Below are positions 3,659-14,731 of a stretch of DNA of 14,731 nucleotides, one piece after another; the stretch's first letter is position 1, and each line of letters starts with the position of its first letter. The position numbers and the translations under genes were made by a program. Location of the stretch: the NCBI GenBank assembly GCA_964534625.1, contig CAZHRF010000059.1, forward strand, positions 1 to 14,731. Direction: 5' to 3'. This stretch comes from an uncultured archaeon. Lineage in GTDB: Archaea > Asgardarchaeota > Heimdallarchaeia > Heimdallarchaeales > Heimdallarchaeaceae. Under the pieces are notes generated by a model that saw nothing but the letters and a program-made list of their open reading frames with translations, did no database searches and had not been told where the DNA came from.

Positions 3659-4804
3659 TTATACCCCTTCCCAAACAAAAATATTATCAAATAGTGCTCC
3701 TTGTATCGCCCCTGACATTAATCCAATGTATCCTGATTCTAGTTTGTCATCGATAGTTTGTAACATTAAGTTCCCATCTATATATATCTCTATAGTTGAT
3801 CCACTGGCAACAACAGTATAGTCGTACCATGCGTTATCATCTCTTGTCCATTGGGTCGTATGCAATGTTATCAAGGTACCTCTGTCTTCTTGACTTACAG
3901 GATCATCTGGATGACCTGGATATCCATGTCCTTCTACATAGAATAAAGTAAGTTTTCCTGATTCCATAGTCCCATCATAATGTGGTCCATTTCTACCATC
4001 CGTTAGGGTGTGATCATTAGAATAGGTGATCATATAAAATCTAGGTATACCTTCTTCATCTGTGTTAAATCTAAATATTATACCCATTATATCGTCATCA
4101 CCATTAGCATTCAAAGAAAAGGAAATGTTCACATCTCTAAAATTGTGTTCTTCTGCATCTAAAATGGCATATTGACAATTGTTCGGTCCATATTGAAGGA
4201 CTTTATTCCCATCGTCATCTACTATCTGCCAATCAGCTATACTTATAGTTCCAATAGGATCATGGTTAGCCACATGATAATATGTCCATTTTGTATCATC
4301 AAGGTTGTCACCTATTGAATAACTTTCAAAATCTTCACTATATCTTACAATAATAGGTGAATATTCTGCAGGGATGGTTATATCAGATGTTAAAACCAAA
4401 TCTGTATAATAAATTTTTATTCTTATTTCATCGCCATATTTTATTAAATCACGTTCTATGTTCAAAGGTTCAATGCTTACCACTTTAGAGATACCTATAC
4501 CAACCTCAACAGGTGCATTTGGGCATAACCATTCCGTCAATTCTGTGTTCTTTAGTACTTCAACTTTTTCTATACTAGTCTTAGCGCTACCTATGTTTCT
4601 AACGCTTAAATCCATTTTGTCTACATATTTATTACCCTCTCTGTCATAGAAAGTGGTTTTTTCATGTAGTAATTGAGGATTCCCTGTTAACAGTGGAATA
4701 ACTGCAAAGTATACTACTGCTGAAGCTGCTACAACTAGAGCAATAAGTAATATTGTGGCTATAACTGGAGAAACAGCTTTTTTCTTAATCTTTAACATTT
4801 TCAT
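3659..4804 (-). CDS. Archaeal type IV pilin-like protein (class III signal peptide) with Ig-like domain and C-terminal ConA/L-type-lectin (TSP_C-like) domain
   Basis: N-terminus KKKA|VSPVIATILLIALVVAASAVVY is a PibD/FlaK-type cleavage site plus hydrophobic helix. aa ~45-145 are beta-rich (VRNIGS). aa ~153-381 contain YSEDFE, GDDDIMGIIFRF, WYDYTV...IEIYIDG and SGYIGL...FDNIFV. Confidence 0.8.
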   Translation of the reverse strand: MKMLKIKKKAVSPVIATILLIALVVAASAVVYFAVIPLLTGNPQLLHEKTTFYDREGNKYVDKMDLSVRNIGSAKTSIEKVEVLKNTELTEWLCPNAPVEVGIGISKVVSIEPLNIERDLIKYGDEIRIKIYYTDLVLTSDITIPAEYSPIIVRYSEDFESYSIGDNLDDTKWTYYHVANHDPIGTISIADWQIVDDDGNKVLQYGPNNCQYAILDAEEHNFRDVNISFSLNANGDDDIMGIIFRFNTDEEGIPRFYMITYSNDHTLTDGRNGPHYDGTMESGKLTLFYVEGHGYPGHPDDPVSQEDRGTLITLHTTQWTRDDNAWYDYTVVASGSTIEIYIDGNLMLQTIDDKLESGYIGLMSGAIQGALFDNIFVWEGV

Positions 4805-6584: not shown

Positions 6585-9044
6585 TTATTCATATTTTACT
6601 TTAAATTTAGCTCGAAATATTTGCCCTATAATAAAGAGTACCATCGTCATAACAAGTAAGATCATTGCACCAGTCATCGCCCAACTTTTGGATGGATGAT
6701 TAAACCCAGGATCTTCTATAGCCAAATACCAAATTGTAAAAGGTAGCATAGCAATACCTTCTCCTCTTAATCGTGATGGATAGGCACGTGAGCTTATTTT
6801 TAGTACTGCTACAGTGAGCATAATAGGGGCTGTTTCACCTATTACCCTACTGATAGACATCAAATAACCCGTAATAATTGATGGAATAGCATAGCGTAAA
6901 TTTTGCCCTTTAATAGCTTCCCACTTCGTTGCTCCTAAAGATAGAGCGTTAAGTCTATAATGTTCTGGAACTTGTTCCAAGGCTTGAATACTAGTAGATG
7001 TAGCAATTGGGATCATCATGATAGCCAGAGTACACGCTCCTGAAAGGAAACCATGTCCCCATTTAAATATTAAGACAAACATTCCCCAGCCAAATAATCC
7101 AACTACTACACTTGGTACAGAAGCTATGTTTTGAATAGAATCTTTTACGAATTGTCCGAATTTATTTGTGGGTTTTACATAAAAGAATAAGTAAATACCA
7201 GCAAATGTACAAATGGGTAGTGCAATAAGAGCAGCAGCGCCAACAACAATAATAGACCCGAGAATTGAAGGTAACCAACCATAATTATTACCACTCCTTC
7301 TGATGGAAAAAAGATCACGTAAAGCAAAATCTTTGAATCCTTCAATAAATAAAACGATAGTTATTGCTGTTATAATCGCCAATACCCCCAGCGTAATCAA
7401 ACGGAAAAGAGTAAAAGTTATAGCTTGACGCACATGTTTGTGTTTCGATGATGTAGAGGCATTGGAAAGAAAATATTCTTGGATAAACTGTTTTTCTTCT
7501 TCAGTATTATATAGCTCGTTGTTTTTTAAACTATTATCTGTTTCATGTTGTTTTGGATGCTTCTCTTTTGAGTTCTGATTTGAACGCATGTTTTTAGTAT
7601 TATTAATGTTGGTTTTCGTAGTGATCGATTCCGCATCTAATGGCTCATTCATCCGCCTTTTTTCAATTATATTATTATGTGCATGAGGAGTGGAATAGAA
7701 CACACCTATTCCAAATATAAAAAGAAAGAACATTGAGAAGGCAGGATTAATCTCACTTAGGCTTCCATATATAATTTGTTCAATAAAAATAAGAATAATA
7801 GGAACTGTTGATAAATAAATTGATAATTTGTTTCGATTATCTGCTATTTTATGACTGAAAAAGAATAGTCCAATTGATACAAAAATTAAGATATCCAATA
7901 TAAGGATCCCTATTAAAGCTGCATGGGCAGACAGATACGTTATTGTTTCAATTATATCCCAAATTGTTGCTAATAATAGAAAGAACCACAAAATTACCGT
8001 TACTTTACCATATTTTTGATTAAACAAGTCTTTAATGCTAATCTCTTCACTTTTGATAATCTTTCTATATGATGGGAGGAAAATTTTCTTTTTAGCGATA
8101 GATCTTCCTATTCCTGTGACTAGAAATGATAAAAGTAGAAGTTCTAATGCTATAACATATAATGCAAAATACTCTGCAGTAAATAAAGCCACATTTTTGT
8201 ATTCAACAGCTATTTTAGCAGGAATAGGCGCACCTCCTTGTAGGGGGTTAAAGACACTTTTACGTAGATACCACGTTTTTGCACTAACCATAGCAACAAC
8301 CATTGTTTCTCCTATAACACGAGCGAAGGCAAGTATACAGGATGAAACAATACCTTTGATAGCATAAGGAATACTGACTTTCCAAATAACCTCTAACTTA
8401 GAGGCTCCTAGGGCTGTACCTGAATGCTTGATATCAGTTGGAACAGAATCTAGAGCTTCATCTGTAAGAGTGGCAATAAAAGGGATTGTCATAAAAGCTA
8501 ACGCGATTGACGAAGTTATCAGCACTTTCCCCGAATTTAATCCAAAAAAGTTTCGTACAAATTCTGTCAAATAAAATATGGCTAATAAACCTACAACAAC
8601 ACTTGGAATAGCATTAATTAGTTCAATTGCTGGTTTGATGATATTTTTGATATGCTTGGGGCAAATTTCTGCAAGGAATATACCAACAGATATACCAATA
8701 GGTATTACCAAAATCATCGCATAACTAGTTACAATCAGACTACTGATAAGAAGATTTTTACTCCCAAAATATCCTTCTTCGTATTCTGCTTCAGGTATCC
8801 ACTTTTCCGTAGTTATGATTTCTTTGAACAATTTAAAATCAATAAGAAATCTGCCTGTATTCGTAATAATAAATACTGTTATAAATATGACAAATAAACT
8901 CGCGAAAATAGCACAAAAAGCACTAAAATATTTAATGAATAGATCTTTTTTTTGTCTTGTCGATCGAAATCCGATGGTTTCTTGCTCAAAAAATTCTGAA
9001 CTCATAGGAGAAGTAGAATCTATATCATCATAAGATTGAGACAT
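6585..9044 (-). CDS. pstC: Fused phosphate ABC permease PstC-PstA with an extra central 4-TM segment and polar linker
   Basis: Two complete permease modules: IPSVVVGL / ALGAS / ARVIGETMVV (PstC, aa ~35-320) and VPSVVVGLFG / LSLGAT / SRVIGETAPI (PstA, aa ~540-822), in one uninterrupted frame. ATG 9044 follows an AGGTG SD; the ORF track's GTG is at 9053. Confidence 0.9.
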   Translation of the reverse strand: MSQSYDDIDSTSPMSSEFFEQETIGFRSTRQKKDLFIKYFSAFCAIFASLFVIFITVFIITNTGRFLIDFKLFKEIITTEKWIPEAEYEEGYFGSKNLLISSLIVTSYAMILVIPIGISVGIFLAEICPKHIKNIIKPAIELINAIPSVVVGLLAIFYLTEFVRNFFGLNSGKVLITSSIALAFMTIPFIATLTDEALDSVPTDIKHSGTALGASKLEVIWKVSIPYAIKGIVSSCILAFARVIGETMVVAMVSAKTWYLRKSVFNPLQGGAPIPAKIAVEYKNVALFTAEYFALYVIALELLLLSFLVTGIGRSIAKKKIFLPSYRKIIKSEEISIKDLFNQKYGKVTVILWFFLLLATIWDIIETITYLSAHAALIGILILDILIFVSIGLFFFSHKIADNRNKLSIYLSTVPIILIFIEQIIYGSLSEINPAFSMFFLFIFGIGVFYSTPHAHNNIIEKRRMNEPLDAESITTKTNINNTKNMRSNQNSKEKHPKQHETDNSLKNNELYNTEEEKQFIQEYFLSNASTSSKHKHVRQAITFTLFRLITLGVLAIITAITIVLFIEGFKDFALRDLFSIRRSGNNYGWLPSILGSIIVVGAAALIALPICTFAGIYLFFYVKPTNKFGQFVKDSIQNIASVPSVVVGLFGWGMFVLIFKWGHGFLSGACTLAIMMIPIATSTSIQALEQVPEHYRLNALSLGATKWEAIKGQNLRYAIPSIITGYLMSISRVIGETAPIMLTVAVLKISSRAYPSRLRGEGIAMLPFTIWYLAIEDPGFNHPSKSWAMTGAMILLVMTMVLFIIGQIFRAKFKVKYE

Positions 9045-9080
9045 AATTGACACCTAGTATAGTAGTTTATGAGTAATTAC

Positions 9081-10384: not shown

Positions 10385-11407
10385 TTAATCTCTATCACTG
10401 TTTATTACAGCCTCAGCTATATCTGCAGCATAACTATTTATTCTCTCAAAACTCCTGATAAGTAATATTATCGATAGCAAATGTTCATGTTCAATCTTAG
10501 TAATCTTGTGATAAAGAGCTTGAATGTCTTTTTGTAAAACGGGTTTATTATTAGCTATATCATTAGCCTCTAGAACTTTGGTGTTAAAAAAACAACCCAT
10601 TGCATTATTATAACTATCTCTAACTTTAGAACCAATGCTTTTAATCTCATTTAAAAGAGTCTTATTTTCAATCAAAGTATCCATTTCCATAACAGCTTGG
10701 GCTATACCATAAGCGTGATCCCCAATAGCTTCAAGTCGTTTGATAACTAATTTATAATCCATCACTTGAACCATTTTTATACCCAAGTATGAACAGTATG
10801 AAAGGTCAGATAAAATAGCATTAAGCTGCCGAGATACAAGAAAATATAAGCGGTCAACAGAAGGTTCTTGAAGTGAAACAAGACGAGCTGATTCTTTGTT
10901 AAGAGTAAAAAAGGATTCTAAAGCATTTTTAAACATCTTATCAGCAAGAACGTGTGTTCGATGAATCAGTTGATTGAGATCTAAAGATTCTAAACTAGTC
11001 AGATCTTTCAGTTGAATCCAGTGATTGGACTCTTCAACAATTTCAACTCCCATAAGATTAGCGGTAAATTGTTCAATTTTAGTACGAAACTCAAAATCTA
11101 TCCCGTCCTTATCAAATAGTTTTATCAAACGATAGCCTGAAAGATATTTACTAACAATTTTCCTTAATACTAGGTTGATGTCAAGAATTTCATTAATATT
11201 TATTTCTACTTCCTTAGTACTAGCTTCTCTTTTTTTATCTTCTGACATCACAAGAAGATTGCCCTCTTGTTGAGGATAAATGACTACTGTATCACCTTTT
11301 TCTAAATCACTCATGCGAATCCAATCGATGGGAAGGGCTATAGTATATGTGCTTCCACCAGTCTTTTGGATTTTTCGTGAATAAAATTCTTCGTCTAACA
11401 TATTCAT
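10385..11407 (-). CDS. Archaeal phosphate uptake regulator (N-terminal AbrB/SpoVT DNA-binding domain + two PhoU domains)
   Basis: RKIQKTGGSTYTIALPIDW..LEKGD.V (AbrB-like), SKYLSGY, LMGVEIVEES, VDRLYFL, KRLEAIGDHA and FERINSYAADIAE. The true start is probably 11407 or 11401; the extension to 11545 looks non-coding and overlaps the operator. Confidence 0.9.
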   Translation of the reverse strand: MNMLDEEFYSRKIQKTGGSTYTIALPIDWIRMSDLEKGDTVVIYPQQEGNLLVMSEDKKREASTKEVEININEILDINLVLRKIVSKYLSGYRLIKLFDKDGIDFEFRTKIEQFTANLMGVEIVEESNHWIQLKDLTSLESLDLNQLIHRTHVLADKMFKNALESFFTLNKESARLVSLQEPSVDRLYFLVSRQLNAILSDLSYCSYLGIKMVQVMDYKLVIKRLEAIGDHAYGIAQAVMEMDTLIENKTLLNEIKSIGSKVRDSYNNAMGCFFNTKVLEANDIANNKPVLQKDIQALYHKITKIEHEHLLSIILLIRSFERINSYAADIAEAVINSDRD

Positions 11408-11476
11408 AATGCGTTTAAAATACATCAATATATAGTTTATTGAATTGCACAATATTATTAGCAAAAAATAAATACA

Positions 11477-11507
11477 ACTATATAGCAACAATAGAACTAT
11501 ATAGTTC
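11477..11507. promoter_or_regulatory. Tandem palindromic operator (ACTATATAGC-N9-ACTATATAGTT) upstream of the AbrB-PhoU regulator
   Basis: Copies at 11477-11486 and 11496-11506. The second copy lies within the perfect 14-bp palindrome GAACTATATAGTTC (11494-11507). Confidence 0.75.
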
Positions 11508-11776
11508 ACTATTGTTTTCAGTAAAGAGTTGATAATGAATTTCATAAAGGGAAAAAAAACAATACATATTTGTTACGTATTCTCTGATTTCCCTTGTATT
11601 TCCTTTGTTTTTTTCACTGTTTAACCATCCTTTCTTGTTCTGTTCTACATAAACCAGACGGAGTGTGATAAGATGGAGTAGACTGTCATTCCTCTGTTAC
11701 TAACTGTTTATTTGTTTTTTTGTTCCTCTCCAGTACAGAATCATTCAAAGACTTTTAATATAAAAAGAGGAAAATT

Positions 11777-12835
11777 ATGGACGAGAAAAAAAAAATGACT
11801 GAAAAGATATGTTCTGTTCTCACAAAAAATCAAACCATTCTTGCTCAAAAAATAATGGATAAACACTATGAAAAAAACCTTGACATGAAAATTAACTATT
11901 CTAATAAAGAGAAAAAAGCTGCACTAGAAGATACAGAGTTTCATCTAAAATATTTAATAGAAGCACTTAGATTTGAAGAATCAAAATTATTTAGATACTA
12001 CATTTCTTGGGTGAAAGAGTTATTTATAGGCTTAAATTTGAATATAGAAGGACTGAAAGAGAACTTACAGATCATGCAATCAGTGATCAGAGAGACTTTC
12101 CCTAAATATTATGAAACGATTAATGAATATTTGAACGAAGGCATAAGAGAAACAGAGCAAAAAATTGTTTTAACTCAAACATATATAACAGAAAATCAAC
12201 CATACGCCGAGCTTACACAAGAGTATGTTAATGCCTTATTAGAGAGAGATAAACAAAAGGCACTTAAACTTATTCTGGGTGAAATAGACAAAGGTACGGC
12301 TATAAAAGACTTGTATTTACATGTTTTTCAGCTATCCCAATGGGAAATTGGCCGTTTATGGCAAAACAACGAGATATCTGTAGCTCAAGAACACTATTGT
12401 ACATCAGCGACCCAACTAATTATGGGGCAATTATATCAACATTTAATATCTTCAGAAAGAAAAAATAAAATACTTATTGCTACTTGTGTTGGCAAAGAAT
12501 TACATGAACTGGGTATACGTATGGTATCCAACCTATTTGAGCTAGATGGATGGGATACTTATTACTTAGGTGCCAATATGCCTTCAGGGGAGATTATAAC
12601 TATAATAAAGGACATACAACCAGATCTTATTGCATTATCAACAACTATTGTATATCATCTTTCTGAAATGAAAAATTTGGTTTCAACTATAAAACAAGAT
12701 TATACAACAACAAAAGTTGTGGTTGGCGGATACCCTTTTAATTTAATAAAAAATCTATGGAAAAAGATAGGAGCTGATGGATATGCGCCAGATGCTGAAA
12801 AAGCAGTTAAATTAGGGAATGAATTAGTAGGATAA
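11777..12835 (+). CDS. Cobalamin-binding sensor protein: N-terminal globin/phycobiliprotein-like helical domain + B12 cap + Rossmann B12-binding domain (photocobilin/CarH-like)
   Basis: W195-x9-E205H206 (WQNNEISVAQEH), E241-x-H243-xx-G246, YLGANMP, DLIALSTT, VVVGGYP and GADGYAPDA. GAGG SD at 11767-11770. Confidence 0.85.
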   Translation: MDEKKKMTEKICSVLTKNQTILAQKIMDKHYEKNLDMKINYSNKEKKAALEDTEFHLKYLIEALRFEESKLFRYYISWVKELFIGLNLNIEGLKENLQIMQSVIRETFPKYYETINEYLNEGIRETEQKIVLTQTYITENQPYAELTQEYVNALLERDKQKALKLILGEIDKGTAIKDLYLHVFQLSQWEIGRLWQNNEISVAQEHYCTSATQLIMGQLYQHLISSERKNKILIATCVGKELHELGIRMVSNLFELDGWDTYYLGANMPSGEIITIIKDIQPDLIALSTTIVYHLSEMKNLVSTIKQDYTTTKVVVGGYPFNLIKNLWKKIGADGYAPDAEKAVKLGNELVG

Positions 12836-12841
12836 ATATTT

Positions 12842-14341
12842 ATGGTTATAAAAACAGGCATTATTGTTTTAACTACAATAAATGGCAAAATCATTGAAAT
12901 AGTTAATACTGGAACTATTTCAGAATTAAACAATTATTCAAGTTTAGATACGATACCACACGATAATAAAAAATTTAGAGAATTACTAACTGAGATAGAA
13001 AAAAAAGGATATTCTTTCTCAAAAGAAGTGAAATTAAAGCTAAATGGAGTTCATACATACTATTTTGCAGGATCTAAAAGCGCGAATAAAATAGTACTTT
13101 TTGGTTGTAAGTCGAAATTGAACTTACTAAGGATGTTTGACAGATTGAGTAGTTTAAAGCCATTTTCTAAGTATTTAGAACCTTTATCACCAATCATTCA
13201 AAAAGAATTTGAAAAAATTGATGACCAATATGCCTTTTTAGACGAGCAAAGTTCTATAGTTAATGAACTTATCAACACGCAAAGGGAGTTATCATTAAAA
13301 AATATTAAAATAGAAAAAGAACGATTAAGATATGAAGTTACACTAAAAAATATTGAAGAAGCAGTTATATCAACCGATAGAAATTTCTGTATCCGTTTTA
13401 TTAATCAAAGAGCTGAGTTATTAATGGGGATTTCGCAAAGTAATGTTTTAAATAAGCAAGTGCAAAAAGTCCTACAACTTTATGATGAAAATTCAACAGA
13501 AGTTGGGTTTGATTGGTTTATAGAAAGAAAAAGGATTATATTTCAAGATTATATTGCATTGATTCATAAAGATGGAATCCGCATACCAATCGTAGGCGCG
13601 ATTTCAATATTAAAACATCAAAATACGGTTTTTGGCTATTTAATTGCTCTTTCCGATATAAGCGAAAGGAAGGAGATGATTGAAGAAAAAGAGAGAATTA
13701 ATCAATTATTAGAGATATTAAACCAAATTTTAAGACATGACATTAATAACAAAATTATCATCCTCAATTATGTTTTATCTGAATTAGAGGATAAGGAATC
13801 AATTTTATATCAACAAGGAGCCAAAGCATTAAAATCCATAGAAAAAATAATTGAAAGAGTCAAAAATATTGAAGAAGCAGTAAAAGAACAAGTTAAATTA
13901 GAAGTGTATCCATTGACAAAGATTATACAAGAGATTATGGGATCATATGATATCAGTTACCAAATAGAAGGGAAAGGAAAAGTCTGGGGTGATGGTGCTA
14001 TTTACTCTGTTGTACAAAACATTGTAAATAATGCTGTTTTACATGGAAAAGCAGAAAGTATCAAATTCATTATCGAGCAAGAAGAAGAGCACGTGATCTT
14101 GAATATAATAGATGATGGTAAAGGGATTAAACCAAATATAAAGAAACAAATATTCGAAAAAGGATTTAAATACGGAGAAACAGGAAATACGGGATTAGGA
14201 TTATACATTGTACAACAAATTATGCTCCGTTATAAAGGAAGTGTGTCTGTAGAACCAATTAAGCCAAAAGGTACAAATTTTAAATTGTATTTCTATAATG
14301 CTGAAGGTATTTCAAAAAAAGAATTAAACAAAAGAATATGA
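12842..14341 (+). CDS. Soluble PAS-domain sensor histidine kinase
   Basis: PAS (TLKNIEEAVISTD...FINQRAELLMG...DISERK), H-box ILRHDINN, N-box NIVNNAVLHG, G1 DDGKGI, F-box IFEKGF and G2 GNTGLGLYIV. No TM segments are evident. It starts 6 nt after the B12 gene. Confidence 0.92.
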   Translation: MVIKTGIIVLTTINGKIIEIVNTGTISELNNYSSLDTIPHDNKKFRELLTEIEKKGYSFSKEVKLKLNGVHTYYFAGSKSANKIVLFGCKSKLNLLRMFDRLSSLKPFSKYLEPLSPIIQKEFEKIDDQYAFLDEQSSIVNELINTQRELSLKNIKIEKERLRYEVTLKNIEEAVISTDRNFCIRFINQRAELLMGISQSNVLNKQVQKVLQLYDENSTEVGFDWFIERKRIIFQDYIALIHKDGIRIPIVGAISILKHQNTVFGYLIALSDISERKEMIEEKERINQLLEILNQILRHDINNKIIILNYVLSELEDKESILYQQGAKALKSIEKIIERVKNIEEAVKEQVKLEVYPLTKIIQEIMGSYDISYQIEGKGKVWGDGAIYSVVQNIVNNAVLHGKAESIKFIIEQEEEHVILNIIDDGKGIKPNIKKQIFEKGFKYGETGNTGLGLYIVQQIMLRYKGSVSVEPIKPKGTNFKLYFYNAEGISKKELNKRI

Positions 14342-14731
14342 AAACTAATAAAATTAAAGAACCAATATCGCTGTCAGACAGATCTAAAATATTCTTATAA
14401 TCATCGAAAATTATCTTATTGTTCAATTAATACCTCACCATTCGTGTGATATTGATTTATTTACCTGTTTTTTCTTCTTTCCGTAGTATCTGTTAATGGG
14501 TGTATTCAATAAAGATCATATATCAAGTATTACATTTTTGTCCCCCCCTACTAATGTTTAGGAAACTCAAAAACAGCACATGGAATAAACAAAAGTAGAA
14601 TAATACCATTTGCCATGAAATAAACGATTAAAAAGTATCCCCCCTCTCTTCTTGGAAGAAGTCATCTTTTTATATATTCTATTGTTCTTGTAAGGAGACA
14701 GATACAAGAAGGTCACCTTAACATATAGTCC

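Follow-up and report, generated by a model that had tools for sequence, protein, structure and literature searches.

Among the B12 photoreceptors, photocobilins form the newest class. The characterised photocobilins are the stand-alone SasPcob and AbDPcob, a fusion with a diguanylate cyclase (Protein Data Bank (PDB) entries 8J2W/8J2X/8J2Y; Zhang et al. 2024, Nat Commun, PMC10979010). In AbDPcob, light activates the fused cyclase via a quaternary change, and CarH works through a light-driven change of oligomeric state (PMC10979010); the words 'histidine kinase' appear 0 times in the text of that paper. Proteins with a photoglobin, a B12-binding_2 and a B12-binding domain have been described, in bacterial and archaeal genomes, beside sensor kinases, receivers and GGDEF proteins (Schneider et al. 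2021/22, PMC8717448), and that study (Comput Struct Biotechnol J) predicts a 'regulatory bundle' that senses light, no locus having been tested. Here, we describe a two-gene locus of a Heimdall-group Asgard archaeon that encodes a photocobilin-type sensor, P0001, and a soluble histidine kinase, P0002. Both genes lie on a contig of 14,731 bp (C59), which was analysed in its entirety and is referred to as the window, from a metagenome-assembled genome (MAG) of 3.37 Mb in 120 contigs (32% GC, 89.8% complete).

A preliminary description of this DNA, made from the sequence alone, knew of no description of a B12/light-gated two-component pathway in archaea; that the kind is undescribed there is not supported, as photoglobin-B12 operons with sensor kinases were reported computationally for bacteria and archaea (Schneider et al. 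2021, PMC8717448). The gene pair is common among bacteria. The photoglobin-B12 family and its association with sensor kinases are already known by computation, archaea included, and are partly characterised (Zhang 2024, PMC10979010). The locus described here very probably belongs to these photocobilin-plus-partner-kinase cassettes.

Sensor and kinase proteins of the locus

The two open reading frames (ORFs) at 11777-14341 lie on the same strand exactly as first described, and the 6-nt gap between them implies that they would be co-transcribed. P0001 is a photocobilin-type, domain-swapped photoglobin-B12 protein and not a plain B12 sensor. The preliminary description had taken it for a stand-alone B12 sensor; both B12 domains are indeed present (Table 1), but the first ~145 residues, which had been overlooked, form a photoglobin domain. 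The PF00502 (Phycobilisome) match to aa 11-121 (E 0.0027, 18.1 bits) lies under the 22.2 cut-off, and a Phycobilisome match is precomputed for most of the >4,500 full-length P0001 homologues. In the AlphaFold2 (AF2) model of P0001, with a predicted local distance difference test score (pLDDT) of 93.9, the globin region is all-helical, containing seven helices at aa 3-127 at high confidence. The closest PDB entry by sequence was SasPcob (8J2W/8J2X, E 1.5e-22), onto which the model superimposed at 1.7 Å across 205 columns (8J2W) with ~29% identity over the B12 part, and the next-best folds were the B12 light-sensor domains of CtMerR and CarH. A domain scan of P0001 revealed no DNA-binding (helix-turn-helix) and no enzyme domain.

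The signature residues of the family are in place. The B12-binding_2 domain contains G192xxW195 and E205-H206, which together make up the W-x9-EH light-sensor motif, and the Rossmann domain contains E241-L-H243-E-L-G246, a (D/E)xHxxG motif carrying the lower axial His ligand, and G265xxxP269. Residues D52, W78, W195, E205, H206 and H243 were invariant in an alignment of 32 homologues. Mapped onto SasPcob, with the PDB sequence numbering being six below that of the paper and with motif definitions taken from PMC10979010 and PMC11796333, W195 corresponds to Trp61, E205-H206 to Glu71-His72 and H243 to the cobalt ligand His108, while D52 and W78 correspond to Asp270 and Trp296, the biliverdin contacts of SasPcob. 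D52 occupies the position of the D in the CXRD motif of phycobiliproteins and the CXQD motif of photoglobins (PMC10151467); P0001 lacks the Cys of these motifs, and so do the photocobilins of known structure. Of the four SignatureFinder elements (PMC11796333), P0001 fits three, namely GxxW (G192-W195), EH (205-206) and GxxxP (G265-P269).

Residues 1-168 of P0002 matched no Pfam family, and a PDB sequence search with them gave nothing meaningful. An alignment-based AF2 model of this N-terminal region (pLDDT 90.9) revealed a five-stranded PAS-type fold at aa 7-89, followed by a short helix at aa 92-104 and a single long helix at aa 106-167, and Foldseek matched the region to solved PAS domains with a probability of 1.0 and template-modelling scores of 0.6-0.7, corroborating the earlier suggestion of a degenerate PAS-like N-terminus. 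The long helix carries the conserved NNELxxxQRELxKKN motif, in which N141, L143, Q147, R148 and N154 are near-invariant and position 140 is V in P0002, the consensus being N. The catalytic boxes of the kinase are intact, comprising the N box (N396/N397), the G1 box (D425-G-K-G) and the G2 box (G448-N-T-G-L-G-L), and no transmembrane helix was predicted in P0002, the top 19-residue Kyte-Doolittle mean being 1.37. The order first read from the sequence, a helix before PAS-HisKA-HATPase in a protein lacking transmembrane segments, was thereby recovered, with the helix motif at S138-E160, an H-box and a HATPase_c domain.

Conservation and origin of the sensor-partner pair

We sampled 80 loci encoding relatives of P0001, which came from >15 bacterial phyla, a Methanotrichaceae MAG and a Promethearchaeota MAG. 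A profile search found the N-terminal module of P0002, that is, the divergent PAS fold and the conserved helix, in the next same-strand gene at 75 of these loci, using a profile seeded with four partner N-termini, P0002 itself being one of the four. P0002 aa 2-165 matches this seed profile, and the match of P0002 to a 58-row module profile (E 6.7e-32) is that of the first row of the underlying alignment, whose near-invariant columns are G15, G77, N140, N141, L143, Q147, R148, N154 and L157 in P0002 numbering. The N-terminal module stays constant while the output types of the partners vary (HisKA, HisKA_2, HisKA_3 and GGDEF); 68 partners contained HATPase_c (58), HisKA (54), GGDEF (8) and receiver domains (8). 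Clustering at 50% identity gives ~1,940 clusters that contain the module, which is N-terminal in nearly all cases; in this genome it occurs once, in P0002. Reciprocally, a sensor gene lay immediately upstream of three of four sampled module-bearing proteins, the fourth being a kinase with no upstream sensor gene. Conservation of the pairing had been set beforehand as a test, and it held in gene-neighbourhood analysis in both directions; the statement in the preliminary description that an NEL..QREL..KN helix occurs in kinases and GGDEF proteins encoded beside B12 genes was likewise correct. These comparative data point to a specific receiver element on the partners, with the histidine kinase as the commonest natural output.

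The pair also occurs as a single protein. [quoted passage not shown] Because the fusion and the Paenibacillus partners keep the helix without the PAS fold, the helix appears to be the constant element, and the PAS fold would be dispensable when the sensor is covalently attached, as would be expected if the PAS fold helps docking. Given that the pair is conserved, that the sensor gene stands upstream in three of four reciprocal cases and that a natural fusion exists, a split receptor acting in trans appears the best reading of the locus, for which gene context gives good support.

The gene after the kinase encodes a receiver domain at 28 of 61 loci, for which reason the sensor-kinase cassette would usually feed a phosphorelay. 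The preliminary description had noted that no receiver gene is nearby, and the contig contains none, the 15 Response_reg matches of the genome all lying on other contigs, although the downstream side of the pair comprises only 390 bp before the contig ends. At two loci from Thiotrichaceae and relatives (L024:7131-8912 and L026:6512-8260), the gene after the pair encodes a Response_reg/DUF3369-HisKA-HATPase hybrid, which suggests that a multi-kinase relay may follow some cassettes; the genome of this archaeon gave no DUF3369 match.

Among 60 relatives of the same class, the only full-length P0001 homologue (40% identity) was found in a genome of the same family and another genus (G002). There, the kinase gene starts without a gap after the sensor gene, and its product, with the helix LGELTTIQRQLVNANRE and the H-box IRHDITNA, has the architecture of P0002. 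Across Asgard archaea, the sensor was present in 18 of 400 genomes and 12 of 85 genera, and its 20 loci have the full module next door (9), the helix only (4) or neither (7). At two Asgard loci, L134:1070-1429 (-) (G137, a 6.0-Mb genome in a single contig) and L129:2591-2974 (+) (G132), the photocobilin gene adjoins a protein of 119-127 aa consisting of an NNELVNxQRxLHKKN helix and a Cys-rich tail (ICSNCK...FSHGxCxxC) that may bind zinc, which looks like a minimal partner with a putative non-kinase output.

The backbone of the sensor tree was not resolved, and the archaeal rows were scattered among bacterial ones. Because forcing the window and G002 sensors together gave a better likelihood (+62.9 lnL over the free quick search; p-value of the approximately unbiased (AU) test 0.958), a single acquisition in their common ancestor is compatible with the data, the AU result being limited by the long branches and biased composition of the two rows.

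The catalytic half of P0002 has another affiliation. In comparisons with its core (aa 280-499), module-free kinases of the same family reached 124-150 bits and a paralogue in the same genome 109 bits; of 75 partner kinases, 74 stayed at <=37 bits, the sole exception being a Cloacimonadaceae partner (L062, 119.9 bits). An [RK]HD[ILVM]xN H-box is found in four paralogues in this genome, three of which are kinase-core paralogues, in eight kinases of relatives besides the G002 partner and in one partner (L062) in the 80 loci, and all other Asgard partners have the bacterial-type H-boxes SHELKNPL or AHDLRNPL. P0002 is, as judged from these comparisons, a chimera of a bacterial-partner-like input module and a lineage-typical PAS-RHDxxN core. 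The preliminary description had proposed a bacterial input module grafted onto an archaeal-type RHDINN core, and the occurrence of the module once in the genome, the bit scores of the core and the lineage-typical H-box speak in its favour.

The Cloacimonadaceae partner (L062:6046-7155 (+), from a MAG) has the H-box ILRHDLAN and no inserted PAS domain, and is the only bacterial partner in the 80-locus set with an RHDxxN core; it may point to a donor lineage or to transfer from archaea to bacteria. Because L062 has such a core, the junction of module and core need not be archaeal in origin. Taking these observations together, we consider that the cassette was probably acquired from bacteria and that its module was joined to a lineage-typical kinase core in this Heimdall family.

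Proposed signalling mechanism and alternatives

Taken as a whole, a mechanism in which a photocobilin sensor switches its cognate kinase in trans by light is probable, and we infer its cofactors, light as the signal, the physical contact and the sign of regulation from the comparisons above and from characterised relatives. P0001 most likely binds adenosylcobalamin (AdoCbl) in the base-off/His-on form via H243, with the adenosyl group capped by W195 and E205-H206, and may also hold a bilin in the globin pocket lined by D52 and W78. By analogy with SasPcob, AbDPcob and CarH, light would cleave the Co-C bond of AdoCbl and thereby alter the quaternary structure of the sensor. The input module of the kinase, consisting of the divergent PAS domain and the NNELxxxQRELxKKN helix and being the only plausible receiver of such a change, would read it in trans, and the helix of this module is predicted to run by way of the second PAS domain into that of the DHp. 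The change would thereby switch both the autophosphorylation of H299 and phosphotransfer to a response regulator, candidates for which lie off the contig.

The genome offers a setting for such a mechanism. It encodes a CobA-type corrinoid adenosyltransferase (C1:202327-202830 (-), 130 bits) and appears able to adenosylate corrinoids because this enzyme is present; a PduO-type adenosyltransferase was not found in the 89.8%-complete genome. It also encodes a heliorhodopsin (C5:5729-6484 (+), 285 bits) and a DNA photolyase (C49:535-1002 (+), 141 bits), which are consistent with light exposure of the host.

Several points weigh against a light-switched sensor-kinase pair. Heme oxygenase (PF01126) was not found in the same incomplete genome, so that a source of biliverdin is not evident and the use of a bilin is uncertain. 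The alignment of the P0001 globin region to that of SasPcob is statistically weak on its own, if motif-consistent, and the SignatureFinder element GxxH reads G239-K-E-L-H243 (GxxxH) in P0001, longer by one residue, although the family consensus, GGELH, fits the element. The module is absent from the next gene at five of the 80 sensor loci and at seven of the 20 Asgard photocobilin loci, so that other outputs are possible for the sensor. Rather than a docking surface, the conserved helix could be a signalling helix of the ordinary kind, and a search of the accessible literature found no experiment on any photocobilin-kinase pair. A complex prediction for the sensor and kinase residues 1-168 scored 0.00 in two runs without controls and weighs neither way.

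Of the alternatives, the one that survives best retains the cassette and replaces its signal: the sensor would respond to cobalamin availability, upper-ligand form or redox, and the kinase would tune B12-dependent metabolism or uptake. AerR of Rhodobacter, which binds cobalamin and acts on its PAS-containing partner CrtJ, counts for this possibility, as do the missing heme oxygenase and the many hosts of the family that are sediment or digester anaerobes, such as Anaerolineae, Syntrophaceae, Cloacimonadaceae and Methanotrichaceae; according to Schneider et al. (PMC8717448), the hosts are moreover not known to use light for energy. We nevertheless regard a signal other than light as unlikely, given that the CarH-type light signature (GxxW, W-x9-EH, the His ligand and GxxxP) is invariant across the family, that the nearest solved relatives are all photoreceptors and that the heliorhodopsin and photolyase of this genome imply exposure to light.

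In a second alternative, the two genes are co-transcribed and share no more than their regulation, their products making no contact: both PAS domains would serve the kinase to sense a ligand of its own, and the photocobilin would act on another target. Unless the two are directly linked in function, it is difficult to see why a module found once in the genome follows the sensor gene in three of four sampled cases and why nature has fused sensor, helix and kinase in L088; the module also stays while the output domains vary among HisKA, HisKA_2, HisKA_3 and GGDEF. This alternative would accommodate the photocobilin loci lacking the module, both in the 80-locus set and in Asgard archaea, and the one sampled module-bearing kinase in four that has no upstream sensor gene, and we consider it very unlikely. 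That the first gene encodes a corrinoid methyl-carrier of the MtbC/MtgC type and the kinase is unrelated, as might be read from the label 'methanogenic corrinoid protein MtbC1' that JGI gives to many homologues and from weak NCBIfam matches to MtgC (66 bits, cut-off 370) and MtbC (56 bits, cut-off 350), is extremely improbable, as the window contains no methyltransferase gene, P0001 combines the W-x9-EH motif with a photoglobin domain, and the short corrinoid proteins of relatives (210-230 aa) match it only at E 1e-12 to 1e-16; with MtaC at 30 bits against a cut-off of 420, an MtbC, MtgC or MtaC identity for P0001 was rejected on scores and gene context.

The proposed trans action of the photocobilin on the kinase invites a further idea, which we advance tentatively: the module may be a dedicated 'photocobilin receiver', a universal plug that docks a stand-alone B12/bilin photoreceptor onto kinases and cyclases in trans. 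If so, the cassette would give a Heimdall-group Asgard archaeon a natural two-component system gated by green light, the kinase of which would have arisen when an imported plug was joined to a native kinase core.

Surrounding genes and relation to known systems

The coordinates of the locus are collected in Table 1. The 231-bp AT-rich region upstream of the sensor gene presumably holds the promoter of the cassette, and a ribosome-binding-like GAGG motif lies 7 nt upstream of the sensor ATG. A scan of the window for bacterial promoter and terminator consensus sequences, the host being archaeal, found sites no more numerous than in shuffles, and an Rfam scan of the window revealed no RNA family and no riboswitch.

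Table 1 Features of the sensor-kinase locus and its flanks in the window
Feature	Position (nt)	Protein position	Strand	Remarks
Intergenic region, AT-rich, between divergent PhoU/AbrB-type gene and sensor gene	11546-11776		.	231 bp
Sensor gene P0001	11777-12835		+	352 aa; stop TAA 12833-12835
Photoglobin domain (globin-like, putative bilin-binding)	11777-12211	aa 1-~145	+	PF00502, AF2, invariant columns
B12-binding_2 four-helix bundle	12218-12433	aa 148-219	+	PF02607, E 9.7e-13
B12-binding Rossmann domain	12473-12808	aa 233-344	+	PF02310, E 2.3e-21
Gap between sensor and kinase genes	12836-12841		.	6 nt, 'atattt'
Soluble histidine kinase gene P0002	12842-14341		+	499 aa
Divergent PAS-fold domain	12842-13153	aa 1-~104	+	No Pfam match; specific to genes after photocobilin genes
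Long continuous helix	13157-13342	aa 106-167	+	Predicted, pLDDT >89
Conserved motif within long helix, SIVNELINTQRELSLKNIKIEKE	13253-13321	S138-E160	+	NNELxxxQRELxKKN motif
Second, canonical PAS domain	13328-13681	aa 163-280	+	Pfam; missing from most bacterial partner kinases
DHp (dimerization and histidine phosphotransfer) region, H-box ILRH299DINN	13694-13891; His codon 13736-13738		+	RHDxxN type; no Pfam HisKA match
HATPase_c catalytic domain	14000-14293	aa 387-484	+	E 7e-20
Contig end after kinase	14342-14731		.	390 bp, no credible ORF

The other genes of the window encode a pyridoxal phosphate-dependent (PLP) enzyme, a topoisomerase IA, a pilin-like surface protein, the products of a pst operon and a PhoU/AbrB regulator, and none of the neighbours is kept beside the pair in G002, the sole one of the 60 same-class relatives having it. 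In agreement with a Heimdall-group host, the topoisomerase has its nearest named relatives in Ca. Heimdallarchaeota MAGs, at 35-38% identity. The regulator gene (10385-11545 (-)), which points away from the sensor gene and comes first on the side of the pst operon, encodes 386 aa with an AbrB/MazE-type DNA-binding domain, PhoU repeats and a hydrophobic N-terminal extension of ~45 residues. The pstS-pstCA-pstB-phoU operon lies on the minus strand and includes an 822-aa fused PstC-PstA-type permease (6585-9053 (-)), the halves of which are joined by a long Asn/Lys-rich low-complexity linker with extra predicted membrane segments. The 381-aa product of 3659-4804 (-) starts with a pilin-like signal peptide (archaeal class III), behind which lies a 3-keto-disaccharide hydrolase/LamG-like domain; it is probably displayed on the surface, where it would bind glycans or act as a hydrolase.

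A demonstration of the proposed mechanism would establish a natural B12-gated two-component system, the first of its kind, and provide optogenetics with a modular switch for green light. In the biology of Asgard archaea, P0001 is a candidate cytoplasmic light sensor beside the heliorhodopsin and photolyase of the same genome, which agrees with proposals of lit niches as the habitat of Heimdall-group archaea.

In purple bacteria, AerR/PpaA is a stand-alone cobalamin-binding protein that acts in trans on a PAS-containing partner, CrtJ (PpsR), an arrangement reminiscent of that proposed for P0001. The partner of AerR, however, is a transcription repressor and not a kinase, and AerR lacks a photoglobin domain. 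The PpsR PAS structures 4HH2 and 4L9G were among the Foldseek fold matches of the P0002 N-terminus, a likeness at the level of fold.

P0001 shares with CarH/LitR (Thermus thermophilus CarH, PDB 5C8A-5C8F) the cobalamin-binding module with its W-x9-EH and His-ligand signature, but it lacks the MerR DNA-binding domain, has an extra photoglobin domain and presumably acts through a kinase; the NCBIfam CarH model scored 53 bits on P0001 against a cut-off of 400. SasPcob resembles P0001 more closely, as both are stand-alone proteins with a CarH-like cobalamin domain and a globin-like bilin domain in which the AdoCbl and biliverdin contacts are conserved. By contrast with SasPcob, the globin domain is N-terminal in P0001, a swapped order that constitutes one of three architecture groups (PMC10979010), the output is presumed to pass through a separate histidine kinase, and the host is archaeal.

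The photoglobin-B12 operons represent the same protein family and operon theme as the P0001-P0002 locus (PMC8717448); the accessible part of their description lists PAS and S-helix domains generically, not a partner-specific module of PAS domain and NNELxxxQREL helix, and makes no mention of Asgard archaea. What is added here is an instance from a Heimdall family, a chimeric kinase with an RHDxxN core and an extra PAS domain, and quantified evidence for a specific, previously unannotated input module that travels with the sensor.

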